DNA of 63,201 nt, filler included, from Mycoplasmatota bacterium (lineage in GTDB: Bacteria; Bacillota_I; Bacilli_A; RF39; UBA660), in NCBI GenBank assembly GCA_012727915.1. It is 5 parts of 5 records of this genome, joined end to end, with 100 filler letters (N's around TTAATTAATTAA, not from the genome) between each part and the next. Parts side by side here need not be neighbours in the genome. Positions count along the whole stretch, not along the records: positions 1 to 26,547 come from JAAYGD010000004.1; 4 more parts are not named here. One strand, written 5' to 3'. The notes beneath the pieces were generated by a model. That model was not told where the DNA came from. It made no database searches and saw only the letters and a list, made by a program, of their open reading frames with translations. The translations under genes and the position numbers were made by a program. Shown here one piece after another: positions 9,286 through 26,419 of this stretch; position 1 is the stretch's first letter, and each line of letters starts with the position of its first letter.

Positions 9286-9293
9286 ATTATCTC

Positions 9294-9708: not shown

Positions 9709-11916
9709 TTATTCTTTATCTGAAAAGAAATCATCGAAAAATTGATCGTCACTATTGTCTTCTTCTTTAATTGATTTTATAACATCATCTATATTAGTAT
9801 TTATTTTTAATTCTTCAGTTACAGGTTCTTCCTTAACTATTAATTCTTCTTCTTTCGATTCTTCTTTAACAAATAATTCTTCCTCTTTAGGTTGTTCTTT
9901 AATAATCAACTCTGCTTCTTTTGGTTCTTCCTTAATTGTTAATTCCTCTGTAATTGGTTTATCTTCCTTTTTCTCTTGTTCTTCTTCAGCTTCTAATTCC
10001 GCTATTTTAGCATCTATTTTTTTAATTAGTTCATCAATGTCAAAGGAAGAATTCTCTGGTTCATTTGAATTTATACCATGAACTGGAGGCCTTTCTCCAA
10101 GATAAGGATTATTTTTAAAAATATCTTCTGGCATTCTATCTTTAATTCCAAAATCCATAGGTCTTGGAGCTTTATACATATCTTGTGCTCCTAACATTTT
10201 CTTTTGTCTTGATTCATCTACAAAATCTTTTAAGTTAAAGTATTCTATTTCTCTTTTAACTCTTTCTGGAAATTTTCCTTCTGAATAATTTGGCATATTC
10301 CAATTTATTTCGGAAGCAAATTTTAAAGAAGTCTTAAATGGAGAATTTCTATGCTTTAAAATAATAGCATCTTTAAATTTTAATCTTTGAAGTTCCGCTA
10401 CTGTTATTAACGGCCTTACTTCTTCTTTATCCTTAGTTTTAATCTTTCTTTCGCCTGCCAATTTACTTATTTCTTCTAATGACTTTAATTCGCTACTCAA
10501 CAAATATATAGTGTTTGCGCAGTTTCCTTTTATTGTTTCTGCTTCTTCTGCACCATATACTTGATTTAATTGTGCAAAGTTTTGAATAATTAAATTGAAT
10601 CTAATTTGTCTAGATCTAGCAGCTGTAATCATAGTAGTAACATCTTTAAGAGCTGGTAAGTTTGCAAATTCATCTAATATAAAATTAGTTCTAACTTTTA
10701 ATTTTCCATCAGGATTATTTTGAGCTACATCTATTAAGCTTTCATAACATTGTTTAATAAATATAGTTGCTAAAGCATGATATGTTTTCTTTTCATCTTG
10801 AATTACCAAAAAAACTGCAGTCTTTTTTCTTCCTATATCCATAATATCAAAATCACTATAAGATAACATCTCAGATAAATTCTCAGCCATCGCAAATATA
10901 TTAACCTTTTGTCTAAATACCGAAATTATTCCTCCTTGAGTTTCATTAGGAGCATTAACAGTACCAGATGCATTAATATAAGCAGAATTTTTTTCATCTT
11001 TTGAAGAAAAATATTCTTTCATATATGTTCCAGAACCCAATCTTTTTTCTCCAACAGTAAGCATTAATATAATTGAATTTAAATTAATTTGATTAATATC
11101 TTTTACATCTTGAAATAATCCTTGAGCCAAACCAGTAAAGAAGTCTGCAGCAGTATTTTGCCAAAAAGGATCATCTGTTTTTTCATCACTTAATATATTA
11201 ATTGCTAAATCTCTAAGCAATTCATTACTTTTATCACTATTGCCTGATTTATATAAATCATATGGAAGTGTAAGAGGATTCCATGCGTTTCCTTTTTGAG
11301 GTTCTCTAAAGTTTAACACAACAATATTATAATTCTTTGCCTTTAAATATTCATAATTCTTTCTATATATTTCACCTTTAGGATCGGTAATAATCATAGA
11401 CTCACCATGTTTTGCTAATATATTTACTAAAGGTTGAACCATACAAGATGTTTTACCAGAACCAGTAGCTCCAACTATTAACGAATGTGACTCTCCGTCA
11501 TCTACCCATAATTCATCTTCTTTTACTATTAAAGGTACTCCTCCTCCAGAATATGATTCACTAGAAGGATTTACACTTTTCATTCCAATAGCACTTTTTA
11601 TCTCTTTTTCTTTTGCCCAAGTTTCATAGCCATCATTTTTTTTATCTATTTTCTTAAAGCCTAAACCTTTTTCTCTTTCAAAAAAATGAGAAGTTACTGA
11701 TATTGCTACTAAAACTATACCCGCTATAAAAAAAGTTATCGTATAAACAATATATTCTGGAAAAAAAGCTTCAATAGGATTAAATCCATAAAATATAGCA
11801 TACTTAGAAAAATAAGACAAATTTAAAACTCCTATTGCAACAACATATAAGAACAATAGTGCTCCAAGAACATATTTTATTATATCTTTTTCTGTAGCTT
11901 TAAATTTAAATTTCAT
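9709..11916 (-). CDS. virD4: VirD4/TraG-family type IV coupling protein with long acidic tail
   Basis: Two N-terminal TMs; Walker A GATGSGKT; ITDPKGE; DPFW; Walker B FILDEFANL; ARSRQIRFNLIIQNFAQL. Confidence 0.93.
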   Translation of the reverse strand: MKFKFKATEKDIIKYVLGALLFLYVVAIGVLNLSYFSKYAIFYGFNPIEAFFPEYIVYTITFFIAGIVLVAISVTSHFFEREKGLGFKKIDKKNDGYETWAKEKEIKSAIGMKSVNPSSESYSGGGVPLIVKEDELWVDDGESHSLIVGATGSGKTSCMVQPLVNILAKHGESMIITDPKGEIYRKNYEYLKAKNYNIVVLNFREPQKGNAWNPLTLPYDLYKSGNSDKSNELLRDLAINILSDEKTDDPFWQNTAADFFTGLAQGLFQDVKDINQINLNSIILMLTVGEKRLGSGTYMKEYFSSKDEKNSAYINASGTVNAPNETQGGIISVFRQKVNIFAMAENLSEMLSYSDFDIMDIGRKKTAVFLVIQDEKKTYHALATIFIKQCYESLIDVAQNNPDGKLKVRTNFILDEFANLPALKDVTTMITAARSRQIRFNLIIQNFAQLNQVYGAEEAETIKGNCANTIYLLSSELKSLEEISKLAGERKIKTKDKEEVRPLITVAELQRLKFKDAIILKHRNSPFKTSLKFASEINWNMPNYSEGKFPERVKREIEYFNLKDFVDESRQKKMLGAQDMYKAPRPMDFGIKDRMPEDIFKNNPYLGERPPVHGINSNEPENSSFDIDELIKKIDAKIAELEAEEEQEKKEDKPITEELTIKEEPKEAELIIKEQPKEEELFVKEESKEEELIVKEEPVTEELKINTNIDDVIKSIKEEDNSDDQFFDDFFSDKE
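9802..9951 (-). repeat. In-frame 33-nt (11-aa) tandem repeat, ~4.5 copies, in the VirD4 tail
   Basis: TEELTIKEEPK/EAELIIKEQPK/EEELFVKEESK/EEELIVKEEPV/TEELKI. Confidence 0.85.
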
Positions 11917-11924
11917 AATTCCCC

Positions 11925-12611
11925 TTATAATCTATATTTGTTTGCTCTATATACTTTAATTCCCACAAATGAAAGTATTGATAAAATTGATACTCCTATT
12001 ATAATCCATAAATATGATTTTGTCTTTACTTTTGTTTCATATTCTTCTACAACATTATCACCATCTTTATTAAATATTATTTCAATATTTCTAGACTCTT
12101 TTAAAGGAGAATGAAACCAATAATAAGTGTTAGATTTTTCATCATAACTTAAGGCATTATGTCTAATTACCTCAAATGGCAATGAAATACTAATAGAATA
12201 ATTCACAATATTACCATCACCATAAAATTCGTTTTCTATTGAAGAAGCAGTTAAAGAACAAGTTGAATCATTACACTTCGTAATAAAGTTTTCGTATTTT
12301 CCTTCTAAAAATACTGGGGTACTAAAATTAGAAAAAGAAGTTATTCTTTTTAAAGTGTAATTAATATTATTGTCTACAGTATTATCTATTATTTTATAAT
12401 TATATTTTTCTGCGTCTCTCTTAACACTATTTTTTAAATTAATAAAGTCATCTTCAGTCATTACTGCAGATGTGCCTTCAAAAGACATATTATCATAGCG
12501 AAAATTTATACTTTCAGTAATATTTAAACTCTCATCAATATTAAAACTGTAATAAATATTACATCCAGATAAAGTAATTATACAAAATAATATAATAAAT
12601 AATTTTTTCAT
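11925..12611 (-). CDS. Lipoprotein with C-terminal TM anchor (LppM-like architecture)
   Basis: Lipobox LSG|C; SISLPFEVIRHNA...YYW; C-terminal hydrophobic helix followed by basic residues. Confidence 0.65.
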   Translation of the reverse strand: MKKLFIILFCIITLSGCNIYYSFNIDESLNITESINFRYDNMSFEGTSAVMTEDDFINLKNSVKRDAEKYNYKIIDNTVDNNINYTLKRITSFSNFSTPVFLEGKYENFITKCNDSTCSLTASSIENEFYGDGNIVNYSISISLPFEVIRHNALSYDEKSNTYYWFHSPLKESRNIEIIFNKDGDNVVEEYETKVKTKSYLWIIIGVSILSILSFVGIKVYRANKYRL

Positions 12612-12619
12612 TATTTCAC

Positions 12620-15600
12620 CTACTTATAAGTTGCAAAAGAATTCAATTCTTTCCAGTAACTATCTGAAGCTCTTTTAGCGTCTACTCTTACACCACCACC
12701 GCCAGAATGAATAATATACAAATCGTCTCCAGCGTCTCCAATTCCATTTTGATTTTTATCTTCAAATCCCATATATATCATAACATGTCTAGAATTTCCA
12801 GAATAATTATATGCATCCCCAGCTTTTCCAGCAGACGAATTACATAAAATATCTCCAGGAGTCAATAAAGGAAGAACGCTATCTCCAAAATTTTTAAATT
12901 CCGGAATGCTTTCAAATTGAAAAGATCTAGTATATTCGGTTTCTGAATTACACACTGCACCCATTACAGGGAAAGTTTGGTTATCGAACACTTGAAATGT
13001 TTGGTTCAATACCCAATTAACATAACCATCACAATCAAGACCAGCCACTCCCGCATTAAAACTTCCGCCAGTATCATCATAAGATACAAATAATAATCTT
13101 TCTTCATAAGAGTTAGCTAATCTAGCATAATCTTCCTCCATTTGATTTTCATAGTACGGAACCCCATTAAAAGTATATTCATGCAGTTCACCCCACTTTG
13201 GATTAAATCCTTCTTTATACCATGATCTAGCCCATTCTGAACATCTAATTGCAGAATAACTATATTTAAAAGCATGTTTACCAATCATACCTGCATCAGG
13301 TCCGCTTTTTTTAATATCAACACATTCCGGATCATTTTCAATGTCACAAGCTCCACAATATCTTACTTTTCCAAACAAAGAAGAGGCATACGCTAAAACC
13401 CTTTTTCCAGCATAAGTAGGAGCGTGATCTGTATACCATTTTGCTTTTGAATAATAATTTTTTAAATTGGTTTTGCATTGTCCTACATTCTCATAAACAA
13501 TACAATCTGCCCATCCTGGAATTTCAATGATTAAACATTCTTTTAAATAATTATCAATTGTTGATGATAAATCATCTCTATAGTTTAAATATTTTCTTGT
13601 TATTTCAGCAACATAATTACTATCGTTTTCAAACCTATTATTCATATCACTTGAAGGCAAATGAGAATATAGAGCTTTTAATACAATTGACACTCCCTGA
13701 TCGATAGAAATGCTGCTTCCATTTAAAGTGGGACCATTTTCACTATCTATAGTTGTCATAATTTCATTGATTTGAGAATTATTCATCTCAGCATATTTAA
13801 ATATTGCATCAATTAATTCATAATTATTTGCGCTTAATGTTTCAAACATATCTTTTGAACTTCTAAATTCAAATTGAGCAAACAAACTTAGAGGAATAAG
13901 ATTAAATCCCACTTTGACACTATCATATGCAGATTTGTCCATTTCACCAATGATTTCAACCAAAGATTTTCTTCCAAAATAATTATAATTTATATCAGCA
14001 AAAGATGATATTCCATATTCAGTTGAAATAGTCATTGTATCAAAATTTATTTTATCAGCATATTTACTATAAGCACCTTTTTTATTTTCAAATATTGACC
14101 TAAAGTAATTTAAATCAAAGTCTATTTTCATTAATCCAAAACCACCATATTTGGAATTTTCATAGTCTGCAATAGCTCTCATTAAATTAAAACTTTTTTT
14201 AGATTTAAAGGAATAAAATGCCAAACCACCATTTAATGTACAACTACCAACAGGATGCTTTTCAGTTGATTCACAAATATAATCGTAGTTTTCCGCACCC
14301 GTAAATAAATTCTCAGGATTGATAAACTCTTTTTGACCTCCAACTATTTTATATAAACCAAAATGTAAATGAGGTCCTGTTGATTTTCCCGTTGTACCCA
14401 TTATTCCAATCGGATCTCCCATAGATACATGCATTCCTGCAGATACCATAGGAAGCTCTTTAAAGTGATGATACGTACTATAATATGTTTCGCCACTTAT
14501 AGTATGTTGAATTGTAACTGTATTCCCCGCAACTTCCTGAAATCCAGCAATAGTAACAACCCCATCATAAACTGCATAAATGGTTTTATCTTGTTTTGCA
14601 ACAACATCTATTCCATTATGAAACTTGTAAGGTGTAGTAGCTCTTTCACTCTCAAAAGGATTAATTCTCAATCCAAATTTTGATGTAATTGAAAAAGTGC
14701 CCTCTATAGGTCTTCTTAAAAAAGACAATACTTCACCAGGTATTCCTCCAGGAACATAACACTCATCTATCTCTTCTTCTTCATCATATAGATGTCTCCA
14801 TATTTCATAATATGCCATTATGTCTTCAATTATAGGATCTACAACTCCTATTTCCTCAAATAATTCTGGGAACAATAAAGCAACCAGATTTTCTCCATTG
14901 GTTCCTATTTCAGAATTTTTTAATCTAAATGCATATCCTTCTTCATCATATTCAGTTGAATAAAAATATATATATCTATCTTCCTCATCAATATTTAAAT
15001 CACTTTCCAAATCAGAACATGATCTTCCTTCTTTGCTTTCATCAATTTTTGTTACATATTCCGAAGAAATGAACACAGTATTATAAGTAATATTTCCATC
15101 AGAACCGACTTTAGGATTACATCTATATTTAGCTACTTTAATTGATTCCAAATGATTAAATACTTCCTCTACATATTCTGATCTTAAACTTAGTTTTTCA
15201 TCAGTTATTTCTTCTACCAATATAGTTTTACCATCGCCTAAATCGAGTAAAACCTTATTCTCTTCCAATTCCTCTTCAGAACCATCAAAATACAAAGTTG
15301 CTGCGACTAAAGGAATGTTTGTAACTCCATATTTTGCTTTAAATTGATTACTTTTATCTAAAATCATTTCAAAAAGTGCTTGTTCATTAGTTGCGAATTT
15401 ACCATACAAAAGCAAATTTTTTGTTTTTTCAGAAAAAGTTTGCGCAAAGTTAGCTGTTGCAACTGCTGCAGTATTAACCCCTCCTACTATAAGTGAAATT
15501 CCTTCAACCATTTTCATCATAGCACCCACAATTAAAACTATTGTCAAAATAAATGCAATTGCACCAGATGCAATCATAAATATTTTCTTTTTATTTTTTT

Positions 15601-15943
15601 TAAAAAATTTATTTATGAATGATTCGTTTGTAGTCCCTTCTACTTCCAAATCGTTTGAGTCACTAAACTTATCACCAAAAGAATCCTGATTTGATTCAGG
15701 ATTATCATTACTTGAATCTCCTTTAGAGCTTAAAGGATCTGATCCATCACTTTTTCCCAAAAGCTTATTCTGGAAATTTTTGCCTACACCTTCTATTTTT
15801 CGTCCAATCTTTGGATCTACACCTATACTTCGCCATGCAGCATCTTTGCCGGTTTTCATAAGTTTGTTTTTAAGATTGCTTGGGGCTTTTTCTTTAGCAT
15901 TTGGGGCTTTCTTTTCTTGATTATTATTATCTGGTTCATTCAT
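12620..15943 (-). CDS. Large T4SS-associated peptidoglycan hydrolase (TM + M23 peptidase + NlpC/P60-like domain)
   Basis: M23: ITSKFGLR, HNGID, YHH, GKSTGPHLHF. NlpC/P60: GLDCDGYVNWV...PGDIL...HVMIYMG...IIHS. Confidence 0.88.
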   Translation of the reverse strand: MNEPDNNNQEKKAPNAKEKAPSNLKNKLMKTGKDAAWRSIGVDPKIGRKIEGVGKNFQNKLLGKSDGSDPLSSKGDSSNDNPESNQDSFGDKFSDSNDLEVEGTTNESFINKFFKKNKKKIFMIASGAIAFILTIVLIVGAMMKMVEGISLIVGGVNTAAVATANFAQTFSEKTKNLLLYGKFATNEQALFEMILDKSNQFKAKYGVTNIPLVAATLYFDGSEEELEENKVLLDLGDGKTILVEEITDEKLSLRSEYVEEVFNHLESIKVAKYRCNPKVGSDGNITYNTVFISSEYVTKIDESKEGRSCSDLESDLNIDEEDRYIYFYSTEYDEEGYAFRLKNSEIGTNGENLVALLFPELFEEIGVVDPIIEDIMAYYEIWRHLYDEEEEIDECYVPGGIPGEVLSFLRRPIEGTFSITSKFGLRINPFESERATTPYKFHNGIDVVAKQDKTIYAVYDGVVTIAGFQEVAGNTVTIQHTISGETYYSTYHHFKELPMVSAGMHVSMGDPIGIMGTTGKSTGPHLHFGLYKIVGGQKEFINPENLFTGAENYDYICESTEKHPVGSCTLNGGLAFYSFKSKKSFNLMRAIADYENSKYGGFGLMKIDFDLNYFRSIFENKKGAYSKYADKINFDTMTISTEYGISSFADINYNYFGRKSLVEIIGEMDKSAYDSVKVGFNLIPLSLFAQFEFRSSKDMFETLSANNYELIDAIFKYAEMNNSQINEIMTTIDSENGPTLNGSSISIDQGVSIVLKALYSHLPSSDMNNRFENDSNYVAEITRKYLNYRDDLSSTIDNYLKECLIIEIPGWADCIVYENVGQCKTNLKNYYSKAKWYTDHAPTYAGKRVLAYASSLFGKVRYCGACDIENDPECVDIKKSGPDAGMIGKHAFKYSYSAIRCSEWARSWYKEGFNPKWGELHEYTFNGVPYYENQMEEDYARLANSYEERLLFVSYDDTGGSFNAGVAGLDCDGYVNWVLNQTFQVFDNQTFPVMGAVCNSETEYTRSFQFESIPEFKNFGDSVLPLLTPGDILCNSSAGKAGDAYNYSGNSRHVMIYMGFEDKNQNGIGDAGDDLYIIHSGGGGVRVDAKRASDSYWKELNSFATYK

Positions 15944-15969
15944 AAATTATCACCACCTATTTGTGCTCG

Positions 15970-17754
15970 TTAGTAACCGCCTCCACTACCAAATGAATCT
16001 AATTCTTCTTGAGTTACCTCAACAGATATTCTCATTCTTCTATTTCCACAAACAAATAAAGCTTCTCCTTGACTATATCTCTTAATGCTCTCTTTTTCAT
16101 TATCATTTAAATCAATTAATAAAGATAAGTCTTCTACAGCTTGTTTTTTTAATCCCATAACTATATAGTATGAAGCATTGTCAAAAATTGCTTTACCTTG
16201 TGTTATTACAGCTTGTCCAGAGAAATCACTTGGTTGTTGTGTAATTATTATAGTTCCAGTATTATATTTTCTTGCTCTTCTTTGAACTTGAGCTAAAAAT
16301 TCTGCTCCTAATTCATTATTAGCTGCTAATAATACATGGGCTTCATCAACAGACAAAATAGTATTTACAGATTTATCTAAGCATAATCCCCATGCATATT
16401 TTAATATATTAAAGAACAGAGCATTTTTAATATTAGTTTCTGCATTCATTAACTCTTTTATATTAAATACTATAAAGTGAGTATTACCATTAATTGTTGT
16501 ATGTCCATCAAAATAAAATTTCAACTCTCTTGTCAAAGGTCTAATTTTTATTTCTAATTTTTCCATTATGTCTCGTTCGTGTGTTTTATCTATATATTGT
16601 GATAATCTACCTTTAATTGTTGCATAAACATCAGAGAATGTTGGATACATACTAGATGTTAACGTTGTAAAGTCGGTATCAAAATCAATTCCAAATCTTT
16701 TATATGTATCTTGAACTACTTCAATAAATAAAGTAAGAATATCTTCAGTTATACTTGGATCATAATATTTCATAAATGCCTTTAAAAATTGTAAAGACTT
16801 AGTTAATACTGTATAGCCCAATCCTTCTTTCAATTCGTCTTCATCAGCATCTAATATTATTTCAAGTGGATTTACCATTCCAAATTCTCCACCTTTACCT
16901 AAATCTACAAAGTTTCCACCATATAATTTAGTCATTTCTGATATTTCGCCTTCAGGATCTATTGCAACTATTTGATAATCATTTCTAATGTGACCTCTAA
17001 GTACTAATTTAGCAGTAGTACTCTTTCCACTACCAGATGTTCCTAAAATAATTAAATTAGCGTTATTTCTATTGTTTTCTTTCTTAATTTGGTATAAGAA
17101 TTGATTAAATAATATAACTCCACCAGAGAAATCAACTCCTAACAATGTAGCTAATCCTTCATCTTTAACACTATCGAATATAAATGGATACATAGCTGAA
17201 ATAGTAGGACTTGCTATTGGAGTACCAACTCTTTTTTCAACTTCTTGTTTTGGAAATATTGGAAGCATAGATTTAAATACTTTTTCTTGATCGAATCTCA
17301 ATGAAAGCGCTTTCATATCAGCAGCTTCTAAATAATTTTTAGTATTTATTTTTCTTAAATCCAATTCCTCTTTTGTATCCGCAACAATCATTAAATGCAT
17401 TTGAAAATCAAATATTTTTGATTGAGATGATGCAATTTGGCTAGTAAAATATTCTAATGATTCTAAATCTTGTCTAAATCTTTCTTTTAAAGTTTGATCT
17501 TTTTCTTCTATATATTTTTGCTTTAAATCAGCAATTTGCTTATTTAACATCTTAGATAAACTAGAAAAGGGTACTGGTATATGTTTAATTACTATTTTTA
17601 CTCCAGGCAAACTAGATATAGAAGATAAAAAACCTGTTTGTATTACTTTTGGGTAAGCAATTACAGTTAATATAGTTGCATACTTATCACTTATTACAAA
17701 CTCACTAGCTTTAAATTCTAAATCTTTTGGAGCTATTTCTGCTTTTATATTCAT
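15970..17754 (-). CDS. virB4: VirB4/TrsE-like T4SS ATPase
   Basis: NANLIILGTSGSGKS, IDPEGE, PTFSD, VDEAH, RRARKYN..IIITQQPSDF, QGEALF. Confidence 0.92.
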   Translation of the reverse strand: MNIKAEIAPKDLEFKASEFVISDKYATILTVIAYPKVIQTGFLSSISSLPGVKIVIKHIPVPFSSLSKMLNKQIADLKQKYIEEKDQTLKERFRQDLESLEYFTSQIASSQSKIFDFQMHLMIVADTKEELDLRKINTKNYLEAADMKALSLRFDQEKVFKSMLPIFPKQEVEKRVGTPIASPTISAMYPFIFDSVKDEGLATLLGVDFSGGVILFNQFLYQIKKENNRNNANLIILGTSGSGKSTTAKLVLRGHIRNDYQIVAIDPEGEISEMTKLYGGNFVDLGKGGEFGMVNPLEIILDADEDELKEGLGYTVLTKSLQFLKAFMKYYDPSITEDILTLFIEVVQDTYKRFGIDFDTDFTTLTSSMYPTFSDVYATIKGRLSQYIDKTHERDIMEKLEIKIRPLTRELKFYFDGHTTINGNTHFIVFNIKELMNAETNIKNALFFNILKYAWGLCLDKSVNTILSVDEAHVLLAANNELGAEFLAQVQRRARKYNTGTIIITQQPSDFSGQAVITQGKAIFDNASYYIVMGLKKQAVEDLSLLIDLNDNEKESIKRYSQGEALFVCGNRRMRISVEVTQEELDSFGSGGGY

Positions 17755-18305: not shown

Positions 18306-18600
18306 AAAATCCCCATCCTCTCCATAAATATTTTCGTTGATTTGTAAAAAAACGATACATTGATATTAAAAACGATATTACATTATGATAATTTGGTATT
18401 GGCATTACTAACAAAGCTGTAAATAATGCTGGTAGCAGAACAATTATTGTAGTTAATATTGAATCAGTTCCTATAATTAATAACAATAAGAATGATCCCA
18501 TTATTCCAAAACCAAATATTACTAAATCTATTGGAGTAAACATATTAAATATAAGTTGTCCTTTTTTAGTATTTGCTGGTATTAAATATAATCCTTTCAC
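18277..18600 (-). CDS. PrgI/VirB3-like small membrane protein
   Basis: YLIPAN...IFNMFT, two TM helices, basic ..RKYLW tail; position between VirB6-like and VirB4 genes. Confidence 0.7.
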   Translation of the reverse strand: MKGLYLIPANTKKGQLIFNMFTPIDLVIFGFGIMGSFLLLLIIGTDSILTTIIVLLPALFTALLVMPIPNYHNVISFLISMYRFFTNQRKYLWRGWGFYEFTKEQPK

Positions 18601-18625
18601 TAGTTTATCCCTCCTTTTTATAATA

Positions 18626-20626
18626 TTATTTTAAAGCTTTTCCTTGTTTAATTCTAGCATCTAAAGCAGCATCCTCTGAGAAATTTGGATCTTTCGATAA
18701 AGCCTCAACTTGAGATGTAATTCCTTTAATAGTTGCATCCAAATCTTGCAATTGGAAAGATACATCCAAAGATTCTTGTTGTTCTCTCGTAAATTCTGCA
18801 GATTTGTGCCCCAATCTTGTATTTAAAGAATCTATCATAGTAGTATAATTTGCAATTTCCGCTGCAGAAGCACCTCTCGCTGTTGCCGTACTTCTATCGA
18901 TTTCTAATTTAGTTATTTGATCATTTAAAGAGTTAATTTCTTGAGATATCATTGCTGTATTACTTTGAGACATAGCTTGTTTTTGACCCAATACTATAGA
19001 TTTAAATTGATTATCAAGCACAAGGTTTTTCTTTTTAGCATATGTTTCTGAATACATTTTTGAATTTGCAAATTTCTTTGCTTGAGTTTCTTTATATTCG
19101 TCCGCCAATTCTCTTTGGCCACTTGCAACATATGAATTATATGTAGCATCTCCTGCATAACTTGCTTGAAATCCATTTACTAAATCTGTATATTCAGCTT
19201 CTCTTTCAACTGATTGAGAATCCATTCTATCAAATCCTTTCTTCTTTTGAACATTTTCATTAATTTGCTTATCTAATTGACCTCTACGTTGCTTATAAGC
19301 TAACTTATCTGAAGTATGTCTTGCTTGAAGAACCCCACCTTTAGCGCCCGCTTGAGCACCACCACTTCCAGCAGCCTTTAAATCACCAAATATTTCTTTT
19401 CTTTTATCATTAAATTGTCTAAATTTTCCTGGTGTCCAACTTGGATCATCTTGTAATTTCTTTTCATCGTGCTTTCTCATAGCATAACCACCAACCATAC
19501 CAGCAGCAGCAGCCCCTACACCTATTCCAGCTCCGACAATTCCACTTATTGCTTTTCCATCTTCACTTGGTTTGTATCCTAATAATTCTTCTAAGAATTT
19601 TGGAGCGGTTTGCATAAACGCTATTATTGCTAACATTATAAATATTACCTCAAATACTCCTATATCAGAACTTAAACCAGCATCTGCATAATTTTCTAAT
19701 TTTAAATCCACTATTAAATTTGTCATCAAAAACAATATTGAAAGCCTAATAAATAAAGATATATATACTTTTATTGCGGTACTAGACCATCTAGCAAAAA
19801 TTCCTTTTGATGCTGAAGCAGGGTCTAAATATGAAATAATTGCGATTGGAGAAATTATTTCTATTATTAATAGTTTTATAGACCTTAATGCTATCTCAAT
19901 CGTCATTTTAATAAAAGATATTAATAACATTACACCTACAATTGTGGAAATAATAGACATATAATATAGTCTATATTCTGTACCAAATAATCCTCCTGTA
20001 TGGCTTGTTATTGCGCCTTTATTTGATAATGCTTTAATACCATTTTGTTTTAATTGATCTAACGCAGTTGAAGTTTCTTCATCAAGCTCAACATCTGGAT
20101 TCTTTCCAACAAAAATTGCAAACATCCCTCTTGCAATTACATCTCCTTCGTTTTCTCCAACTACTACCCCTGTTCCTGTATCTAAAAATATTCTTTTTAA
20201 AATACCATTATTACCATCTGTTCCTTTTATTACCAACTCTTGAATACCATATGCCATATCAAAAACTGTTGGCATAATTACAACTAATATTACAGTAACG
20301 ATTGCATGTGTAAATATTTTACTTAATCCTTTTTGTTTATCACTTACCATATCAGGATTTGCAATCATAGTAATAATTGAAAACGCCAATTTAAAAAACA
20401 TTGCAAGCGCTAAAAACACATAAATATTTCCTGCTACTTTACTTGCTATTCCACCCGTATCAAAACCCGAATCAAAAAAACCACTTAAATCAACTAAATT
20501 CATTGCAACTTTATAAACCGGACCTAATAAACCATAAATGATGCCATCAATGAATAAAAATAGATTTCTTAATAAATCGCTAATAATCGGTAATCTAAAA
20601 GAAAAAACATCTAACAAAGCACTCAT
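18626..20626 (-). CDS. VirB6/TrbL-like polytopic T4SS channel protein with long C-terminal coiled-coil extension
   Basis: Multiple TMs in the first ~380 aa with RSIKLLIIEIISPIAIISYLDP...FARW; Gly/Ala-rich segment; helical C-terminal tail. Confidence 0.75.
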   Translation of the reverse strand: MSALLDVFSFRLPIISDLLRNLFLFIDGIIYGLLGPVYKVAMNLVDLSGFFDSGFDTGGIASKVAGNIYVFLALAMFFKLAFSIITMIANPDMVSDKQKGLSKIFTHAIVTVILVVIMPTVFDMAYGIQELVIKGTDGNNGILKRIFLDTGTGVVVGENEGDVIARGMFAIFVGKNPDVELDEETSTALDQLKQNGIKALSNKGAITSHTGGLFGTEYRLYYMSIISTIVGVMLLISFIKMTIEIALRSIKLLIIEIISPIAIISYLDPASASKGIFARWSSTAIKVYISLFIRLSILFLMTNLIVDLKLENYADAGLSSDIGVFEVIFIMLAIIAFMQTAPKFLEELLGYKPSEDGKAISGIVGAGIGVGAAAAGMVGGYAMRKHDEKKLQDDPSWTPGKFRQFNDKRKEIFGDLKAAGSGGAQAGAKGGVLQARHTSDKLAYKQRRGQLDKQINENVQKKKGFDRMDSQSVEREAEYTDLVNGFQASYAGDATYNSYVASGQRELADEYKETQAKKFANSKMYSETYAKKKNLVLDNQFKSIVLGQKQAMSQSNTAMISQEINSLNDQITKLEIDRSTATARGASAAEIANYTTMIDSLNTRLGHKSAEFTREQQESLDVSFQLQDLDATIKGITSQVEALSKDPNFSEDAALDARIKQGKALK

Positions 20627-20691
20627 ATAGCATTATCACCTATCTTCATATAATATATATTAATTATAACATATTATTAAAAATATAATAA

Positions 20692-20720
20692 AAAAAAACA
20701 ATTTATTAAATTGTTTTTTT
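20692..20720 (-). terminator. Intrinsic terminator after the VirB2-like gene
   Basis: Inverted repeat AAAAAAACAAT-TTATTAA-ATTGTTTTTTT with a long T-tract on the minus strand. Confidence 0.6.
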
Positions 20721-20721
20721 A

Positions 20722-21057
20722 TTAATCATCAGTTTCACTATCTGGAACTTTTGTTTCTTCTTGATAACCCGCCTTATCATTCCAGCATTCTCTCCATTGA
20801 TCTCCACCTACAACACCAGTTAATAATCTTACAACTATAATTAATAAGAATACTCCCACTGCTGCAGCAGCTCTTTTCCCCAACATAGAAGTTGCAGCTT
20901 TTATAGCCTTTTCATCTCCTGAAGAAACAGCTTTAAGCAAATCAACAGATCCAATTACAAGTAATACAATCGGAACCGCTATCAGAATTACATTATATGC
21001 TATTTTTACATACTTAATTATCTCTTCGAAATGTTCATTAACACAAACTAATATCAT
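20722..21057 (-). CDS. VirB2/TrbC-like (T4SS pilin-like) two-helix membrane protein
   Basis: Two hydrophobic helices joined by a charged loop (SSGDEKAIKAA..MLGKR); directly upstream of the VirB6-like gene. Confidence 0.65.
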   Translation of the reverse strand: MILVCVNEHFEEIIKYVKIAYNVILIAVPIVLLVIGSVDLLKAVSSGDEKAIKAATSMLGKRAAAAVGVFLLIIVVRLLTGVVGGDQWRECWNDKAGYQEETKVPDSETDD

Positions 21058-21114
21058 ATTGTTCTCCTTTCACTATAATTTAATAATACTTTATTAAATA
21101 TACTTTGTCAATAT

Positions 21115-22092
21115 TTATGATTTGAAAAAACCCATCATTTGTTGTTTATCTTCTTTATTTACTTGTTTAGTAAAGCCTAATCTCGCAAGCAAACTATCCA
21201 AGTTTCTACTAAACATCCTATCATTTAAAGGGGGTATACTATAATAAACCTTTGTTTTAGCTTCATACTCAAAGTCTGATACATCTTTAGTATCTAACAA
21301 ACTTTTATTTAAAACAATCTTTTTTCCACCAAGTTTATCAAATATGTCACCTTGTCGTCTAATTAATTTGTTTAATTTAATTGTAGATGGTTCTAATAAA
21401 TATAGCACATCATTGCATACTCCTTCATCACCACTTACATTTAAATCTACTAGTAAAATATCATACATAGGACTTAACCTTACTATTTCATCAAATAAAT
21501 CAGCGTTTGTTGTAGAATACATATCTTTATCATTATAATAAATAAAATCTGTTCTATCTACTTCTAATGCCGCTACTTTATAATTTAATGTAAGTTGTTT
21601 TTTCAACATATATATTAATGATGTTGCTCCAGCATGAGAAGTTAAATTTTTAAATCCTAATACTTTTACATTTTTTTCTATTACTTTATTAGTAACTTCC
21701 TTAGTTAAATTATCAATTTGATGAATATGTGCTACATCTTTATAAGTATTAGTATGATTCATCAAATACTCAATACCTTCTTTATTCTTAGTGAAATTAT
21801 ATATTCCAATAGATATTAATTTAGATAAAAACAAAGAAGATGCAGCTTGGGGAGTATCATCCAATAAGAATATAATTTTACTCATATCCATATTTGAAGA
21901 TAATACTTGTAAATTTTTAAGATCAGAATAATTCTTAATAGCAGTTATATCTAAAATCATTTTGTTATAAAAAAAATTGGAGAACATTTTTATTAATTCA
22001 TTGGCTTCAAATTCTCCATTTACTTTTTTTATTATTTCAACATTTAATGAATTTAGTTTATCGTCTAACAAATTTGCAACTACTATGTTCAT
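21115..22092 (-). CDS. TadZ/CpaE-like protein (receiver-like N-terminus, degenerate MinD/ParA-type P-loop domain)
   Basis: VLGFKNLTSHAGATSL, VAALEVD, YDILLVDLN and IVLNK follow MinD-fold motif order; tad gene context. Confidence 0.6.
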   Translation of the reverse strand: MNIVVANLLDDKLNSLNVEIIKKVNGEFEANELIKMFSNFFYNKMILDITAIKNYSDLKNLQVLSSNMDMSKIIFLLDDTPQAASSLFLSKLISIGIYNFTKNKEGIEYLMNHTNTYKDVAHIHQIDNLTKEVTNKVIEKNVKVLGFKNLTSHAGATSLIYMLKKQLTLNYKVAALEVDRTDFIYYNDKDMYSTTNADLFDEIVRLSPMYDILLVDLNVSGDEGVCNDVLYLLEPSTIKLNKLIRRQGDIFDKLGGKKIVLNKSLLDTKDVSDFEYEAKTKVYYSIPPLNDRMFSRNLDSLLARLGFTKQVNKEDKQQMMGFFKS

Positions 22093-22102
22093 GGTTCACC
22101 TT

Positions 22103-22513
22103 CTATAAATCTTTTAAATTAAATATTATATTTGTTTCTCCTGTTACTGGAGCACTTAAAAACTCTCCTATAACGGGCATATTGAAAGACATATAAGTTG
22201 TAACTCTATAATATTCACCTCGATCGGTAACCATTCTTTCAACACAATAACCATGAGAGGTGTTCAAACATTGTCCCAAAGCTTTAGATCGAGTACTATA
22301 TTGTCCACCATAATATTTAACTTCAGCTAAATATGTATCGATTTTTTCTTTTGCATTATCCCAACCTTCAAATTGTTCTAATAAACTAATAATTTGATTT
22401 TTGTGCCTAAAAGTGATTGCATAATTAAGACCAATAGCCATAATGCTAATATAAATAGATATAAATATTAATATTAATTTAAATAATAACGTACTACCTA
22501 TGGCCTCTTTCAA
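22103..22513 (-). CDS. TadE-like pseudopilin/minor pilin
   Basis: TTG start with GAGGTG RBS; MKEAIG + hydrophobic helix, Cys pair, YYRVTTYMSFNMPVIG C-terminal strand pattern. Confidence 0.6.
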   Translation of the reverse strand: MKEAIGSTLLFKLILIFISIYISIMAIGLNYAITFRHKNQIISLLEQFEGWDNAKEKIDTYLAEVKYYGGQYSTRSKALGQCLNTSHGYCVERMVTDRGEYYRVTTYMSFNMPVIGEFLSAPVTGETNIIFNLKDL

Positions 22514-22558
22514 TATGCATCACCTCACAATATTTTAAAATACATTATATAATAGAAA

Positions 22559-22723
22559 TTATTTATAAGTTCCTGGGGTAGTATCTTGTGTTGTTGTTGG
22601 GTCCCAAACTTCTCCGGCTTCTTCTTTCTTATCATTGAAAAAAATCCAAAAAAATGCAAGCACTGCACCTATAGCAATTATTGTTATGATAGTTAATGTA
22701 GTTTCTCCTGTTGCTGCCTTCAT
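22559..22723 (-). CDS. 54-aa Flp-like pilin candidate (missing from ORF track)
   Basis: Manual translation MKAATGETTLTIITIIAIGAVLAFFWIFFNDKKEEAGEVWDPTTTQDTTPGTYK; strong RBS AGAAAGGAGG at 22731-22740; follows tadC. Confidence 0.75.
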   Translation of the reverse strand: MKAATGETTLTIITIIAIGAVLAFFWIFFNDKKEEAGEVWDPTTTQDTTPGTYK

Positions 22724-22808
22724 TAATATCCCTCCTTTCTATCATATAATTTGATTGTATAATATTTATTTCTTTTTTACAAGTTAAGTTATCTTTTATT
22801 TACACTAT

Positions 22809-23591
22809 TTAGATTGCAAAATTAGTCATCATTGCAAATAACAATACCGCCATTACTCCTAAACCTACGACAGTAAGCATAATCATACTCTTATTTTCCA
22901 TCTTATCTAATCTTTCTTTATAACGAGTACTTCTTGCTTTATTTTGTAAAGATGAAACACTTTTTGAAAACATAATTAATTGTTCATGCTTATCATCTTG
23001 AGATCCCAAACTAAGTCTATATAGTAATCTCATCATTCTAACAGAATCAGATACTGGATACATTTTTGCAAAATCCATATATGGCTCCACAGTTGAATTA
23101 CCAGCATTAATCTTCGCTATCAATTCTTTTAATCCTGGTTTAAACACTTCAGGAGCACTATCAATAGATCTTGAAATTGCAACTGGTATTGTATAATGTT
23201 GAGATAATATTTCTAAGCTTTTTAAAAAATATGGTAATTGTAAATCAATCATATGTAGATGTCTTTTATAAAAAGATTTTACTGAAGAATAGCCTTGTTT
23301 AAATATTAAATATCCTAAAACAAAAGACGCTAATATATTAATAAAATTCATATTATTTAAGAATAAGAAAATAAACACTACAATCGTAACAATTCCATTT
23401 CTAATTCTTTTACTATATTCAGCATTAACATCAACATCATCACCATATTTTGATTTCAAAAAGAATTCATAATCATCTTCCATCATACCTCTAAAGTATT
23501 CTTGATTATCATCAATAAATTTCTTTGAATCAATTAATCTGTGACTTTGAAATATAAATAATACTATTACTCCTATTAAAATAAACTCCAT
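22809..23591 (-). CDS. TadC-like pilus platform membrane protein
   Basis: TM pair, then IDLQLPYFLKSLEILSQ..IPVAI (T2SS-F-like), C-terminal TM; second platform gene after TadA. Confidence 0.7.
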   Translation of the reverse strand: MEFILIGVIVLFIFQSHRLIDSKKFIDDNQEYFRGMMEDDYEFFLKSKYGDDVDVNAEYSKRIRNGIVTIVVFIFLFLNNMNFINILASFVLGYLIFKQGYSSVKSFYKRHLHMIDLQLPYFLKSLEILSQHYTIPVAISRSIDSAPEVFKPGLKELIAKINAGNSTVEPYMDFAKMYPVSDSVRMMRLLYRLSLGSQDDKHEQLIMFSKSVSSLQNKARSTRYKERLDKMENKSMIMLTVVGLGVMAVLLFAMMTNFAI

Positions 23592-24487
23592 TATTCAGCC
23601 CCCACATTCTCATTATAATATTTCTCTCCACTTAACAAGAAATAACTATTTGTAAGAACTATTAAATGTAATATTAAATTAATTTTTATATCATCCAATA
23701 AATCTATGTATGCATCCACTCCCAATAAATATTGAACTAACATTACCATGAAATATAAAGCTACACCCAACTTAAGAAATGATTTTTGGAATGATTTTCT
23801 ATCTATTCTATCTCTATAAACGGCTTCTACTAAGCTATCTATATCTATTAACATAGCATCTAAAGTTTCAGTACTATCTAATGAACCTTCTTTAGTAATT
23901 TGTAAAAACAATTGATGCATATTCTTTATCATATAATAATCATATTTAGTATTCATATAAGAAATAGATTCATCTATTGATCCGTTCTCATAAGATAAAT
24001 CAATCATATGTTTTACATCAGATAATAATGGATCTTCTAATATTCCAGAAGCATATACTCCTTCTAATGACTTAACAAAAGATTGAGTTACTGAAAACTC
24101 CATTATAGTATTTGTTGTATAAACTTGAATTTGTTCAAATAAATATTCACTATATAATCTTTTATATCTCAAGAACGCTAAATAAGGAACAATTACCATA
24201 GCAAGTATTACATATATTGTTGATATTATAATGCTATAAAAATATAGGTAAGATATTACCGCAGCTCCTCCTCCAAACATAATCATTTGAGAAATATACT
24301 CTTTAGTAGAATATTCTAATCCTAATGCTTTAACCTTTTCACTTATCTTTTTATAAGAATAAGGACTAATCCTTTCATATAAATCTTTTGTTTGTTGAAT
24401 TATAAATTTATATGAATTTTCACTAGTACTTTGTCTATAAAACAATATGAAAAGCGCTAATAACATTAATACAACTAGTACCCACAT
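23591..24487 (-). CDS. TadB-like pilus platform membrane protein
   Basis: TadB-like TM topology; directly downstream of the TadA ATPase. Confidence 0.7.
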   Translation of the reverse strand: MWVLVVLMLLALFILFYRQSTSENSYKFIIQQTKDLYERISPYSYKKISEKVKALGLEYSTKEYISQMIMFGGGAAVISYLYFYSIIISTIYVILAMVIVPYLAFLRYKRLYSEYLFEQIQVYTTNTIMEFSVTQSFVKSLEGVYASGILEDPLLSDVKHMIDLSYENGSIDESISYMNTKYDYYMIKNMHQLFLQITKEGSLDSTETLDAMLIDIDSLVEAVYRDRIDRKSFQKSFLKLGVALYFMVMLVQYLLGVDAYIDLLDDIKINLILHLIVLTNSYFLLSGEKYYNENVGAE

Positions 24488-24501
24488 ATAACACCTACTT
24501 T

Positions 24502-25566
24502 CTAAAGAACTTCTTCTATATTAAAAATATTATTTTTTATAGTTACTCCTTGTGCAGACAAATATCCAATTAAATACTTAGTTGGATTAGATAAAAATAC
24601 TTGTCCATTCATTGCTTTTCTATATATTGTATTGTGTTTTGCTATATTATTTTCATCAACATAAAATTCACATACTTCACATACTTCACGAATAAACCTC
24701 TTTGTTTCTTTATCTTGATAACCTCTAATATGTACTCCTAATTGAACATATCTATGTATAGACTTTAAAAATTGCTCAATATCAATATTAGATTCAAGCA
24801 AACTATACATACGAGATGGAATACTTTCAGCTTTATCAGAGTGAATAGTAGATAATATGTTATGTCCAGATGAAATAGAGTTTCTTACTGCCATAACAGC
24901 TTCTGCAGTACGAACCTCTGATAATAAGATCCATCTAGGATTTTGTCTCATACAAGTTACTAATACTTCACTATAAGATGCAATATTATTTGTTTTCATT
25001 GCAACTATATCTCTTTGAGGAAATATCTTATCTAAATGTAATTCCAATGTATCCTCTATTGTTATTAGTTTTTCATCTTCTTTAGTATGAGAAGCTAAAT
25101 ACTTTAAAAACTCAGTTTTACCAGAACCAGTTTCTCCACTAATTAAAATATTACAATGTCCTTCTACACATCTAATTAAAAAATCATGTATCTCTTCTGT
25201 TATATATTTTTCTTCTAATATCTTATCTTTTTTCAACCTTATCTTTGCGGGAGTTTTACGCATTAACATTGCTATACCATTTTTAGCAATAGAATCATGA
25301 ATAAAGTTCAAACGTAATTCAGCACTCTCAGCATCCAAAAACGGATGGGCCATATTAAATGTTTTACCCATCATATTTGAACATTGAAAAGCAAGTTTTT
25401 CTATTATAGCGTTAGTAACATCTTGAACTTCTGCCCTATATACTCCTTTAGATAAAGATTTTAACCACAACTGACCATTGTTTGTGTATGAAACATCAGT
25501 TATATCATCATCATTTAAAAATCTTGCTAAAGGGCCGAAATCAACATTATTGAACATATTGTCCAT
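24502..25566 (-). CDS. tadA: TadA/CpaF (VirB11-family) ATPase
   Basis: DDDITDV, NILISGETGSGKT, ITIEDTLEL, MRQNPRWILLSEVRTAEA, SGH..LSTIH. Confidence 0.9.
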   Translation of the reverse strand: MDNMFNNVDFGPLARFLNDDDITDVSYTNNGQLWLKSLSKGVYRAEVQDVTNAIIEKLAFQCSNMMGKTFNMAHPFLDAESAELRLNFIHDSIAKNGIAMLMRKTPAKIRLKKDKILEEKYITEEIHDFLIRCVEGHCNILISGETGSGKTEFLKYLASHTKEDEKLITIEDTLELHLDKIFPQRDIVAMKTNNIASYSEVLVTCMRQNPRWILLSEVRTAEAVMAVRNSISSGHNILSTIHSDKAESIPSRMYSLLESNIDIEQFLKSIHRYVQLGVHIRGYQDKETKRFIREVCEVCEFYVDENNIAKHNTIYRKAMNGQVFLSNPTKYLIGYLSAQGVTIKNNIFNIEEVL

Positions 25567-25591
25567 AAATTCATCCCCTTTTTATTATTTA

Positions 25592-26419
25592 TTATTGCTC
25601 TTCAGGTATTACATCAGGCAATTGATCTTCAGTAATCAAACCAGTATTTATTTCTAAAAATAATTTTAATTCTTGATTCGATATTATTGGAGTTAAATTC
25701 TCTTTATTTCCACTCTTATAAGATTGAGTAGTAGGTACAGGAACTAACTCAGCAGCTATAGTTCTAACATTTTGCAAATACAATGCTTTTCTTAACAATA
25801 AATGAATATCTTCAGGAACCGCAAACAACAATATACTAGGTCTTCTAGTTTGTTCACTATTCTCAAATACATGTTCTCCACTATTATCTTTAACTGCAAG
25901 TATCTTAACATTTTCAACTAATTTTCCATAAATAACTTTTCCATCTGGATCTAAAGCTTTTAAATAAATATCAATAAAATTGTCAGGAAACATTGAATTA
26001 CCATAAGTTAAATCAACATCTACTGGTAAATTAAATGCAGTAAATCCATCTCTAATATTAATAAATGCAGAATCTGGCAATCTACTTTCAGTTATTATAT
26101 TATCCTCATAAAACATACTTCCAAATGGGATATATGCATTATAATTAGACCATTTTCCCACAATTAAATTAGGATTCTTAATTACTTTTCCTTTAACCAT
26201 TGCTGGTGGAACTTGCGCAATTCCTATCATATCTTCAGTTATTTTTGTTCTTGGTTGAATAGAAACCTTAGCATAAGGTATATCTACCGGTTGAATAGCT
26301 TGATTTACTCTATAATTATATCCAAAAAATATAATAAGTACTCCAAGTACTACTCCTAAAATAGTTACTGTATTCTTATTTTGAAAAAACTTCTTTAATT
26401 TAAAACCTAAATTTCCCAT
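25592..26419 (-). CDS. CpaB/RcpC-like SAF-domain Tad assembly protein
   Basis: N-terminal TM; SAF-like YAKVSIQPRTKITEDMI; GNSMFPDNFIDIY and LVENVKILAVKD. Confidence 0.8.
   Translation of the reverse strand: MGNLGFKLKKFFQNKNTVTILGVVLGVLIIFFGYNYRVNQAIQPVDIPYAKVSIQPRTKITEDMIGIAQVPPAMVKGKVIKNPNLIVGKWSNYNAYIPFGSMFYEDNIITESRLPDSAFINIRDGFTAFNLPVDVDLTYGNSMFPDNFIDIYLKALDPDGKVIYGKLVENVKILAVKDNSGEHVFENSEQTRRPSILLFAVPEDIHLLLRKALYLQNVRTIAAELVPVPTTQSYKSGNKENLTPIISNQELKLFLEINTGLITEDQLPDVIPEEQ

Follow-up and report, generated by a model that had tools for sequence, protein, structure and literature searches.

Why would a bacterium with a small genome keep, side by side on its chromosome, the genes for a tight adherence (Tad) pilus and those for a Gram-positive type IV secretion system (T4SS)? 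The question is raised by a locus in a 63,201-nucleotide stretch of DNA, which we refer to as the window, from a Mycoplasmatota bacterium of the order RF39 (assembly GCA_012727915.1; genome of 873 kb, 25% GC, 93.8% complete). The window consists of five contigs joined with spacers of N, and the locus sits on a contig of 26,547 b. As stated in the original prediction, 15 minus-strand open reading frames (ORFs) stand in a row at 9709-26419 with no unrelated gene in between; all are intact, with gaps of -29 to 95 b. The genes are also mostly single copy, vertically inherited and under purifying selection, and we tentatively read the locus as a set of fixed, strongly conserved chromosomal genes already present in the ancestor of the family and derived from a conjugation apparatus of mating pair formation class FATA (MPF-FATA). 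The fixed chromosomal status is what sets the locus apart, not the pairing of Tad and T4SS genes, which is known from plasmids.

Our family counts refer to 159 RF39-type genomes, each at least 90% complete. A VirB4 orthologue was present in 151 of them, compared with 155 for RpoB and 134 for TadA, and among the 150 places listed the sequence identities ranged from 64% to 99% for VirB4 and from 68% to 97% for RpoB. For VirD4, 23 of 24 family genomes had a match at orthologue level. The order's other family, represented by one genome, yielded neither VirB4 nor TadA, and across 399 scored genomes of the class, orthologue-level VirB4 was found only in the family (49 of 50) and in 2 other genomes, G030 and G037, all other matches being 28% to 34% identical. 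The first of these, the single genome of its order, branched as sister to the family in the RpoB and in the VirB4 tree, had the dedA-rmuC neighbours in common with it, and contained no tadA orthologue. The second, from another order, contained the whole locus and was rejected as evidence of age: its VirB4 fell inside the family and its RpoB outside, 2 of the 3 genomes of its order had no orthologue, and the locus is treated as a misbinned contig or a transfer. It was also noted that 2 divergent VirB4 proteins, P0002 and P0003 (44% and 39%), sat on long branches inside the family clade.

Trees were inferred from 37 genomes chosen by hand, 31 with linked and 6 with split halves. The RpoB and VirB4 trees had 19 of 34 splits in common, 13 of them strong, with zero strong conflict; for comparison, trees from two halves of RpoB had 19 splits in common and shuffled labels gave 0.2. 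The VirB4 path lengths were 0.76 of those of RpoB. The ratio of nonsynonymous to synonymous substitution rates (dN/dS) against one congener ranged from 0.014 to 0.16 over all 15 genes (rpoB 0.031, VirD4 0.039), synonymous sites being saturated at greater distance, and the fastest-evolving genes were those for VirB6, the hydrolase, the lipoprotein and Flp. The GC content at third codon positions (GC3) of the locus genes, 0.12 to 0.17, compares with 0.125 +/- 0.029 for the genome.

The features of the locus, from the Tad end to the end of virD4, are as follows.

25592..26419, minus strand: cpaB/rcpC-like Tad assembly protein, 275 amino acids, one N-terminal membrane helix (TIGR03177, 4e-10; profile match to the SAF protein of BTB_78p, 3e-39)
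24502..25566, minus strand: TadA/CpaF ATPase, 354 amino acids, Walker A at 144 (PF00437, T2SSE, 3e-27; VirB11 and TadA models)
23591..24487, minus strand: TadB-like platform protein, 298 amino acids (paralogous to TadC; profile match on BTB_78p to the gene that follows tadA, 3e-21)
22809..23591, minus strand: TadC-like platform protein, 260 amino acids (Atlas T2SSF clusters; plasmid matches 7e-18, 6e-13 and 3e-6)
22754..22782, minus strand: promoter-like site ahead of the Flp-like gene, a weak match in this genome (9 of 12) at a junction where relatives conserve it
22559..22723, minus strand: Flp-like small protein, 54 amino acids, one helix (alignment of 22; hydropathy)
22103..22513, minus strand: TadE-like minor pilin candidate, 136 amino acids (alignment of 29; size, one N-terminal hydrophobic helix, position)
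21115..22092, minus strand: TadZ/CpaE-like protein, 325 amino acids, receiver-like and ParA-like domains (structure model, pLDDT 87)
21083..21111, minus strand: near-consensus sigma-70-type promoter, TTGACA-17-TATTAT, at the head of the T4SS half (11 of 12 here)
20722..21057, minus strand: VirB2-like T4SS pilin, 111 amino acids, two helices, conserved cysteines (PF18895 in family members)
18626..20626, minus strand: extended VirB6-like channel protein, 666 amino acids, about 7 hydrophobic segments (TrbL_4, 3e-10; hydropathy)
18277..18600, minus strand: PrgI/VirB3-like protein, 107 amino acids (TcpE, 6e-4; profile matches PrgI of BTB_78p, 7e-4)
17751..18305, minus strand: TrsD-like protein, a separate N-terminal part of VirB4, 184 amino acids (NF045975 positions 96-280, 4e-17)
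15970..17754, minus strand: VirB4 ATPase, 594 amino acids, Walker A at 238 (NF045975, 4e-102; dN/dS 0.016)
12620..15943, minus strand: membrane-anchored cell-wall hydrolase in the VirB1 position, 1107 amino acids, M23 and NlpC/P60-like (PF01551, 7e-24)
11925..12611, minus strand: lipoprotein, LppM fold, C-terminal membrane helix, 228 amino acids (invariant G16-C17; Foldseek 2nc8, E 5e-7)
9709..11916, minus strand: VirD4 coupling ATPase, 735 amino acids, two membrane helices, Walker A and B, long acidic linker (PF02534, 5e-54; NF045973, 2e-89)
9724..9741, minus strand: FFDDFF terminal peptide of VirD4, residues 726-731, candidate docking site for a substrate or adaptor (conservation)

Library matches were obtained for virD4, virB4, trsD, prgI (weak), virB6, M23, tadA and cpaB, and the other labels were tested separately. 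The T4SS half contains components of an MPF-FATA system, namely a VirB4 with intact motifs, VirD4, PrgI/VirB3, VirB6, TrsD and a wall hydrolase near virB4. The ORFs of 184 and 107 amino acids upstream of virB4 match the N-terminal part of NF045975, the C-terminus of the hydrolase is NlpC/P60-like, and in 57 of 58 loci virD4 lay downstream of virB4 at a distance of no more than 10 kb. PF18895 matches 17 of 31 VirB2-like family members, the window's own copy not being among these, and a pilin-like family of integrative and conjugative elements (ICEs; the NCBIfam Mbov_0395/Mbov_0397 group) matches 4 of the 31. In the VirB4 tree, which holds no class references, the RF39 proteins grouped with those of Gram-positive plasmids and ICEs.

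The Tad half contains CpaB, the TadA ATPase and a platform of TadB and TadC, two proteins that HHalign identifies as paralogues (94.7%). The nearest Atlas clusters of TadC are T2SSF (score 0.95, TM 0.70). The TadC profile did not match the T2SSF-annotated protein of plasmid zrk4, a single TadB query matched nothing among plasmids, which were reached by profiles only, and the TadZ and TadB alignments had no match in Pfam or in the PDB sequences. The TadZ-like model was placed by Foldseek, weakly (E 1e-3), with SIMIBI/ParA proteins and with 3fkq, which we take to be TadZ; the protein has no canonical Walker A motif (GxxxxGK[ST]). Canonical Flp prepilins carry G at -1 and E at +5. The Flp-like label is based on size, a single N-terminal hydrophobic helix and position only; the consensus of 22 sequences starts MKEATGELNLTV, without a leader, and similar leaderless small proteins were seen by eye on pZB18 and on a pLS20-like plasmid, on which the gene after tadC was also matched weakly (1e-3) by the TadE-like profile. 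There is no TadV prepilin peptidase in the locus; each genome has one A24 peptidase, here on another contig, and a separate PilB-type pilus system with a prepilin peptidase exists in these genomes. Judged from its genes, the pilus module may work like Tad, yet it departs from Tad systems in two features, the Flp motif and a TadV gene in the locus. The RF39 TadA proteins formed one clade (91/74), the sister group of which was not settled, and a common element origin of the Tad module and VirB4 can therefore not be claimed.

The 2 halves were scored as linked if tadA lay at most 25 kb upstream of virB4. Among the 130 genomes with both places listed, 69 were linked, 20 provably unlinked and 41 undecidable, which gives 69 linked out of 89 decidable genomes. 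The linkage anticipated in relatives was thus recovered, in an order that was constant in 55 of 55 loci. Joint distribution of the halves, also implied by the original prediction, held only in part, since apart from the 20 split genomes there were 20 others that contained virB4 and no detectable tadA orthologue, including whole genera (g40, 0 of 3; g59, 0 of 2). Among the best 80 loci of 560 matches, on which all our 80-locus counts are based, 55 had a full 10 kb upstream, and of these 48 reached tadC, 4 only flp-tadE-tadZ or part of it, and 3 no tad gene. The starred branches of the RpoB tree correspond to at least 3 changes to the split state and at least 2 losses of TadA. Most break points were at tadC/flp, at tadZ/virB2 or inside the adjoining virB2 array; one was at tadE/tadZ. 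A break after virB4 was also seen (L108-L109, G015:C5), with the hydrolase, lipoprotein and virD4 about 33 kb off.

TadA moved with TadB, TadC and CpaB in every split examined. Five near-complete genomes without Tad gave no TadB match in a search without a positive control; three of them contained a different, canonical CpaF system, G140 only the PilB type, and G094 no ATPase of the family. This second Tad system (L223 7447-11262, L224, L225), with a TadE with a normal leader, a ParA-type CpaE, CpaF and T2SSF, was found in some family members, among them three without the locus TadA and one with both.

Promoter-like sites were concentrated at 2 junctions. Of the 96 sequences at tadZ/virB2, 85 reached a score of 10 out of 12 or better and 71 a score of 11 or better, against 3% and 0.1% of shuffled sequences; at tadC/flp, 51 of 85 scored at least 10 (shuffled, 5%). 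At virB2/virB2 the count was 23 of 106; the other 11 junction types included lipoprotein/virD4 (6 of 40), with the remainder at 6% or less, and the genome background was 101 of 750 at 10 or above and 36 of 750 at 11 or above. Five T4SS halves without an upstream tadZ still scored 10 or 11. These counts come from related genomes and so lack independence, and matching the consensus does not prove function. The scan of the window alone was uninformative before the comparison across loci (132 sites versus 143 expected; 3 terminators versus 4), and the single one of 6 listed RNA runs that holds part of the stretch (share 0.23) is labelled FAIRE-seq, consists of contigs, and shows neither transcription nor its level. 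The pattern of sites argues for two separate, putatively constitutive transcription units, with pilin genes leading.

VirD4 ended in FFDDFF, or a Y variant of it, in 67 of 68 complete copies, the exception being LFDDFF. A second, partly overlapping set, from which 3 copies cut by the ends of the loci had been dropped, gave 37 of 38 with this tail, the exception being G030. The tail columns were 0.92 to 0.97 identical, whereas no block of 50 residues in the ATPase exceeded 0.78, and the tail is preceded by an acidic linker of variable length in proteins of 679 to 974 amino acids. The motif was found in no other ORF of this genome and in 0 of 5 VirD4 proteins of mobile elements. Acidic tails are known from other coupling proteins: that of F TraD binds TraM (PMC3159463), and that of DotL in the Legionella Dot/Icm system receives effectors (PMC7434980). 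By analogy, the FFDDFF tail is likely a substrate-docking tail.

The pilin and hydrolase genes were the variable parts of the locus. Of 55 loci, 50 contained 2 to 4 VirB2-like genes; these were often long, with a C-terminal pilin part, and the paralogues combined a constant pilin end with variable N-terminal parts of up to 576 amino acids. This genome has three more such paralogues away from the locus. Two long ones, on contigs C46 (1-1084) and C56 (169-1149), are 97% identical over the last 298 nucleotides and unrelated in their N-terminal parts, a pattern that would fit a constant pilin end with exchangeable outer domains; the two contigs overlap by 127 b, and the paralogues are probably tandem. 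Among 8 relatives scanned, the hydrolase slot held M23, SpoIID, lysozyme or Amidase_5 in 5 and gave no match of this kind in 3. Together, the pilin and hydrolase variation may point to a target that varies. A wall-less state of the cells, which would have forced the hydrolase onto a foreign target, was rejected because Mur ligases are encoded.

We found no relaxase near the locus for the six Pfam families searched and no integrase on its contig. In a closed relative, three MOBV genes were located at least about 180 kb from the locus. MobL was present in 15 of 161 genomes and MOBP in 40 of 161 (30 above the cut-off), which are floors because binning loses mobile DNA, and neither was nearer than about 35 kb to a core virB4 or tadA in the place tables, compared by eye. 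The nearest mobile relatives of VirB4 (31% to 34% identical; Thomasclavelia, Solobacterium and Anaerorhabdus being named) have a MobL-type relaxase adjoining virD4, with a Pfam match in 3 of 4, and these relaxases had no match in this genome or in any family locus fetched. Unlike ICEs and conjugative plasmids, the locus shows no linked relaxase of the families searched, no integrase on its contig and no patchy horizontal spread; its VirB4 is present in 151 of 159 genomes and congruent with RpoB. Distant, mobile-looking elements that join tadA-tadB-tadC to virB6 and virB4 were observed on L101-L102 (G017:C3) and L103 (G032:C17), one of them in an RF39-type genome alongside its core copy; the candidates scanned gave no relaxase family match.

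The locus contig extends 128 b beyond the upstream end of cpaB, and at this end it shares 127 b with contig C2. The locus probably continues onto C2, because the gene before cpaB in relatives often encodes a DUF5411 protein (directly before cpaB in 2 of 4 upstream genes scanned) and the 1173-amino-acid protein of C2 starts alike, as judged by eye. In C2, the segment 2148-10093 contains a trmL-like gene (by eye), secreted-looking proteins of 526 and 1173 amino acids and two more genes, followed by cpaB. The rpoB gene at 26686 was rejected as a neighbour, as it lies on another contig across an N spacer. Downstream of the locus are two type IV prepilin-like genes, dedA and rmuC. The prepilin-like genes (7963-9629, minus strand, after virD4) encode 111 and 440 amino acids with an N-methyl motif. 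With the profile of the longer one, 46 of the 80 loci gave a match, located either behind virD4 or among the virB2 copies; no N-methyl match was obtained in L108, the sole such relative scanned in Pfam, and the shared part may be an outer domain. The rmuC gene (6302-7378) also lies downstream in 35 of the 80 loci, and G030, the genome of the sister order, has it there too. A tyrosine integrase and a helix-turn-helix gene at 59240-61160 lie on another contig (C28) and are unrelated to the locus.

From the observed conservation, gene content and modularity, we infer a mechanism, a substrate and a target. A Gram-positive MPF-FATA conjugation apparatus with a Tad-like pilus module, such as goes with it on plasmids of Bacillus and Enterococcus, would have been fixed in the chromosome of the family ancestor and would now serve the cell. 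Going by what is known of the protein families, TadA with TadB/C, CpaB and TadZ would extend and retract a Flp/TadE-like filament that draws the cell up to a partner; peptidoglycan would be opened by the M23/NlpC protein; VirB6, PrgI, TrsD and VirB4 would form the channel; and VirB2-like pilins with variable outer domains would provide the contact surface, the Tad pilus being a helper rather than an essential subunit. A Tad filament in the service of the T4SS, as first proposed, is plausible in view of linkage, gene order, congruent trees and the chromosomal, relaxase-free status. In the weakest steps, VirD4 might dock a conserved host substrate or adaptor via its FFDDFF tail, and proteins might be delivered into, or exchanged with, a neighbouring walled bacterium, in an epibiont- or parasite-like dependence. 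As a whole, the reading that we put forward, with somewhat less than even confidence, is that a contact-dependent secretion system has been domesticated here and is directed at another bacterium, convergent with that of Patescibacteria but with VirD4 kept, because the essential T4SS and pilin array of Southlakia are analogous and RF39 genomes are reduced and auxotrophic (PMC12306168, PMC13155120).

Several points weigh against this secretion reading. The relaxase searches, negative in this genome and in three near-complete relatives, left out MOBF, MOBH and MOBM, and the MOBC control was silent. The TraD tail recruits DNA and not effectors, so that by the same analogy the VirD4 tail would fit DNA transfer equally. 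The hydrolase may act on the cell's own wall only, with 4 Mur ligase matches in this genome. No VirB8 family match was obtained among the locus proteins, the lipoprotein having an LppM fold and other orphan proteins having been left unfolded. The 22 aligned Flp-like sequences have no canonical prepilin cleavage motif, and the filament is not certain. The congruence with RpoB expected of both halves holds for VirB4 but less so for TadABC, which had 20 splits in common with RpoB and 3 strongly supported conflicts. Finally, substrate, effector and target are putative, as is expression of the locus, and rmuC is a frequent neighbour.

Domesticated DNA exchange, in which chromosomal DNA of kin, or DNA of neighbours as a source of nucleotides, is moved in the manner of mycoplasma chromosomal transfer, with no classical relaxase involved, is rather unlikely in our view, but it accounts for several observations: VirD4 is kept in the locus, unlike in most Patescibacteria; the best VirB4 model is that of mycoplasma ICEs, with Erysipelotrichales-type elements in the sister clade; the acidic-aromatic tail recalls the TraM-binding tail of TraD; rmuC often adjoins; and RF39 is reported to be without de novo nucleotide synthesis (PMC13155120). 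Gene exchange alone would, however, rarely hold an RpoB-like constraint in genomes of about 1 Mb, the PilB-type pilus and prepilin peptidase could serve uptake, and variable pilin domains and swapped hydrolases suit changing foreign targets better than kin recognition. A surface structure that attaches to particles, mucus or eukaryotic cells by VirB2-type and Tad filaments, with little or no translocation, would explain why the strongest conserved promoter-like sites precede two pilin-like genes and why the pilin ends are constant and the outer parts variable. We consider it unlikely, as VirD4, which is unneeded for pilus assembly (PMC12857230), is intact, constrained and invariant in its tail.

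The original prediction also offered TadA as the missing VirB11 of one fused machine, required by the T4SS. The linkage in most decidable genomes and on several plasmids is in its favour, as are the scores of TadA (115 bits on the VirB11 model versus 106 on the TadA model, both far below the cut-offs), the drawing of pLS20 gene 37 as VirB11 in a speculative model (PMC8557374), and the other CpaF-type ATPase in three of the five Tad-less genomes, where replacement is possible. An obligate machine has nevertheless become very improbable: the separations and TadA losses, the genomes and genera with virB4 and no tadA orthologue, the absence of a substitute in G094 and of all but PilB in G140, and the conserved promoter of the T4SS half's own all argue against it, and TadA travels with its Tad partners at the splits. 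RF39 TadA is thus neither an obligate VirB4 partner nor free of TadB/TadC, as a VirB11 would be. Because the halves are separable, TadA is probably a pilus motor and not an obligate VirB11; a TadA-VirB4 complex prediction gave no answer (score 0.00) and counts neither way. A conjugative element that has integrated, or what is left of one, seems more improbable still, as does a resident helper locus that would mobilise elements with relaxases in trans. The locus clearly descends from mobile elements, and relaxases occur in a quarter of the genomes, including the closed one, but no integrase or relaxase accompanies it, its housekeeping neighbours dedA and rmuC are common even to the sister order, and its GC3, tree congruence and purifying selection are those of resident genes. 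An ICE as the main role is largely refuted, and occasional mobilisation in trans is possible.

A lineage of Bacilli here keeps a VirD4-bearing T4SS, order-wide, as conservatively as RNA polymerase, a clue to the RF39 lifestyle. The status of the locus in these uncultured, small-genome Bacilli suggests life by contact with other cells; RF39 may need a partner cell, a possible reason why it is uncultured, and the FFDDFF tail could be used as bait for substrate discovery. A more far-reaching picture, which we regard as doubtful, is that RF39 is an abundant and so far unrecognised order of epibionts or predators of gut bacteria within Bacilli, an independent Patescibacteria-like solution that uses a domesticated plasmid mating machine with a retractile, leaderless Tad-like capture pilus, a host range set by VirB2 pilins that vary and wall hydrolases that are swapped, and an invariant FFDDFF tail that loads a conserved substrate class, the same module being the mating pilus of pLS20- and pAW63-type plasmids.

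Among the closest known systems is the T4SS of Patescibacteria (Southlakia epibionticum ML1, TM7x), which is likewise MPF-FATA, chromosomal, mostly vertical and rarely with a relaxase, in small genomes, and includes VirB4, TrsD, PrgI, VirB6, arrays of VirB2-like pilins and adjacent wall hydrolases (PMC12102498, PMC10633639). In the epibiont Southlakia, the T4SS with its pilin array is essential (PMC10633639, PMC12102498), and a 2025 review describes this system as the first shown to be essential for its host and Gram-positive T4SSs as universally lacking VirB11 (PMC12857230). The RF39 locus shares the chromosomal, relaxase-free status and the pilin arrays, and its varying wall-hydrolase domains also recall the Southlakia system, but it belongs to another phylum, has the Tad module linked, and carries virD4 within the locus, whereas virD4 in Patescibacteria is mostly unlinked or dispensable (near virB4 in 148 of 5,713; PMC12102498). 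Because the closest named VirB4 relatives are of Erysipelotrichales type, a separate origin is indicated; the tree holds no Patescibacteria sequence, and none was identified among the 10 clusters looked up of 150 listed. The ICEs of Mycoplasma and Erysipelotrichales (NCBIfam Mbov_0395/Mbov_0397) give the best VirB4 model, and ICE-type elements form the sister clade of the RF39 VirB4 (SH-aLRT 100), but they are patchy, have a MobL-type relaxase by virD4 and contained no tadA in the four 20-kb regions examined.

Nearly the same set of Tad and T4SS genes is found in one region of the Bacillus thuringiensis plasmid BTB_78p (NC_018879); this plasmid and those of the pBMB67/pBMB68 type provide the best plasmid VirB4 matches after one Mycoplasmatota plasmid. 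BTB_78p holds a relaxase, VirD4, PrgI, TrsD, a short VirB4, NlpC/P60, CpaB, a TadZ-like ATPase, TadA, TadB and TadC, and RF39 profiles matched all but the relaxase and the hydrolase (CpaB 3e-39, TadA 3e-38, TadB 3e-21, TadC 7e-18, TadZ 6e-3, PrgI 7e-4, TrsD 6e-20, short VirB4 7e-91, VirD4 3e-57). Unlike the RF39 locus, this region is plasmid-borne, has a MobP3 relaxase adjoining virD4, places the T4SS before Tad, and shows 29% VirB4 identity, no FFDDFF tail and no pilin array that we could see. The locus therefore agrees with a described plasmid family in architecture and differs from it as a particular locus. TadA-like ATPases matched 748 plasmid records, the Gram-positive ones mostly from Bacillus, Listeria and Enterococcus.

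The operons of pLS20 (genes 36-54), pAW63/pXO2 and pZB18 encode a CpaF/VirB11 ATPase and, after it, a pair of membrane proteins and small proteins with a single helix (PMC8557374, PMC1196294), together with VirD4, an extended VirB6, VirB4 and a wall hydrolase, as in RF39. The RF39 TadB and TadC profiles matched the two membrane proteins on pZB18 and on the pLS20-like plasmid. In pZB18 (L121 14627-19736) and the pLS20-like plasmid (L122 5153-9147), the annotated VirB11 is flanked by TadB/TadC-like genes and by leaderless single-helix proteins of 50 to 65 amino acids, annotated as hypothetical. These plasmids are mobile, unlike the RF39 locus; pLS20 has a VirB8, which was not recognised in RF39, pZB18 shares with RF39 a VirB2-type gene (TrbC/VirB2), and CpaB and TadZ had no match on pZB18 or the pLS20-like region. 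Thus the pairing is not unprecedented in Bacilli, as had been supposed: BTB_78p, pZB18 and the Mycoplasmatota plasmid pair both modules, the pLS20-like plasmid shows the Tad part, and the ATPase has been published for pLS20 and pAW63. In the available portions of that literature the ATPase is called VirB11, its neighbours are listed as unknown and no Tad module is named (PMC8557374, PMC1196294), and our search, with subscription journals and supplements outside it, turned up no publication that describes a T4SS in RF39 or names a Tad-T4SS pairing in Gram-positives. By comparison with the RF39 locus, the VirB11 gene of pLS20- and pAW63-type plasmids may be re-read as the motor of a Tad-like module.

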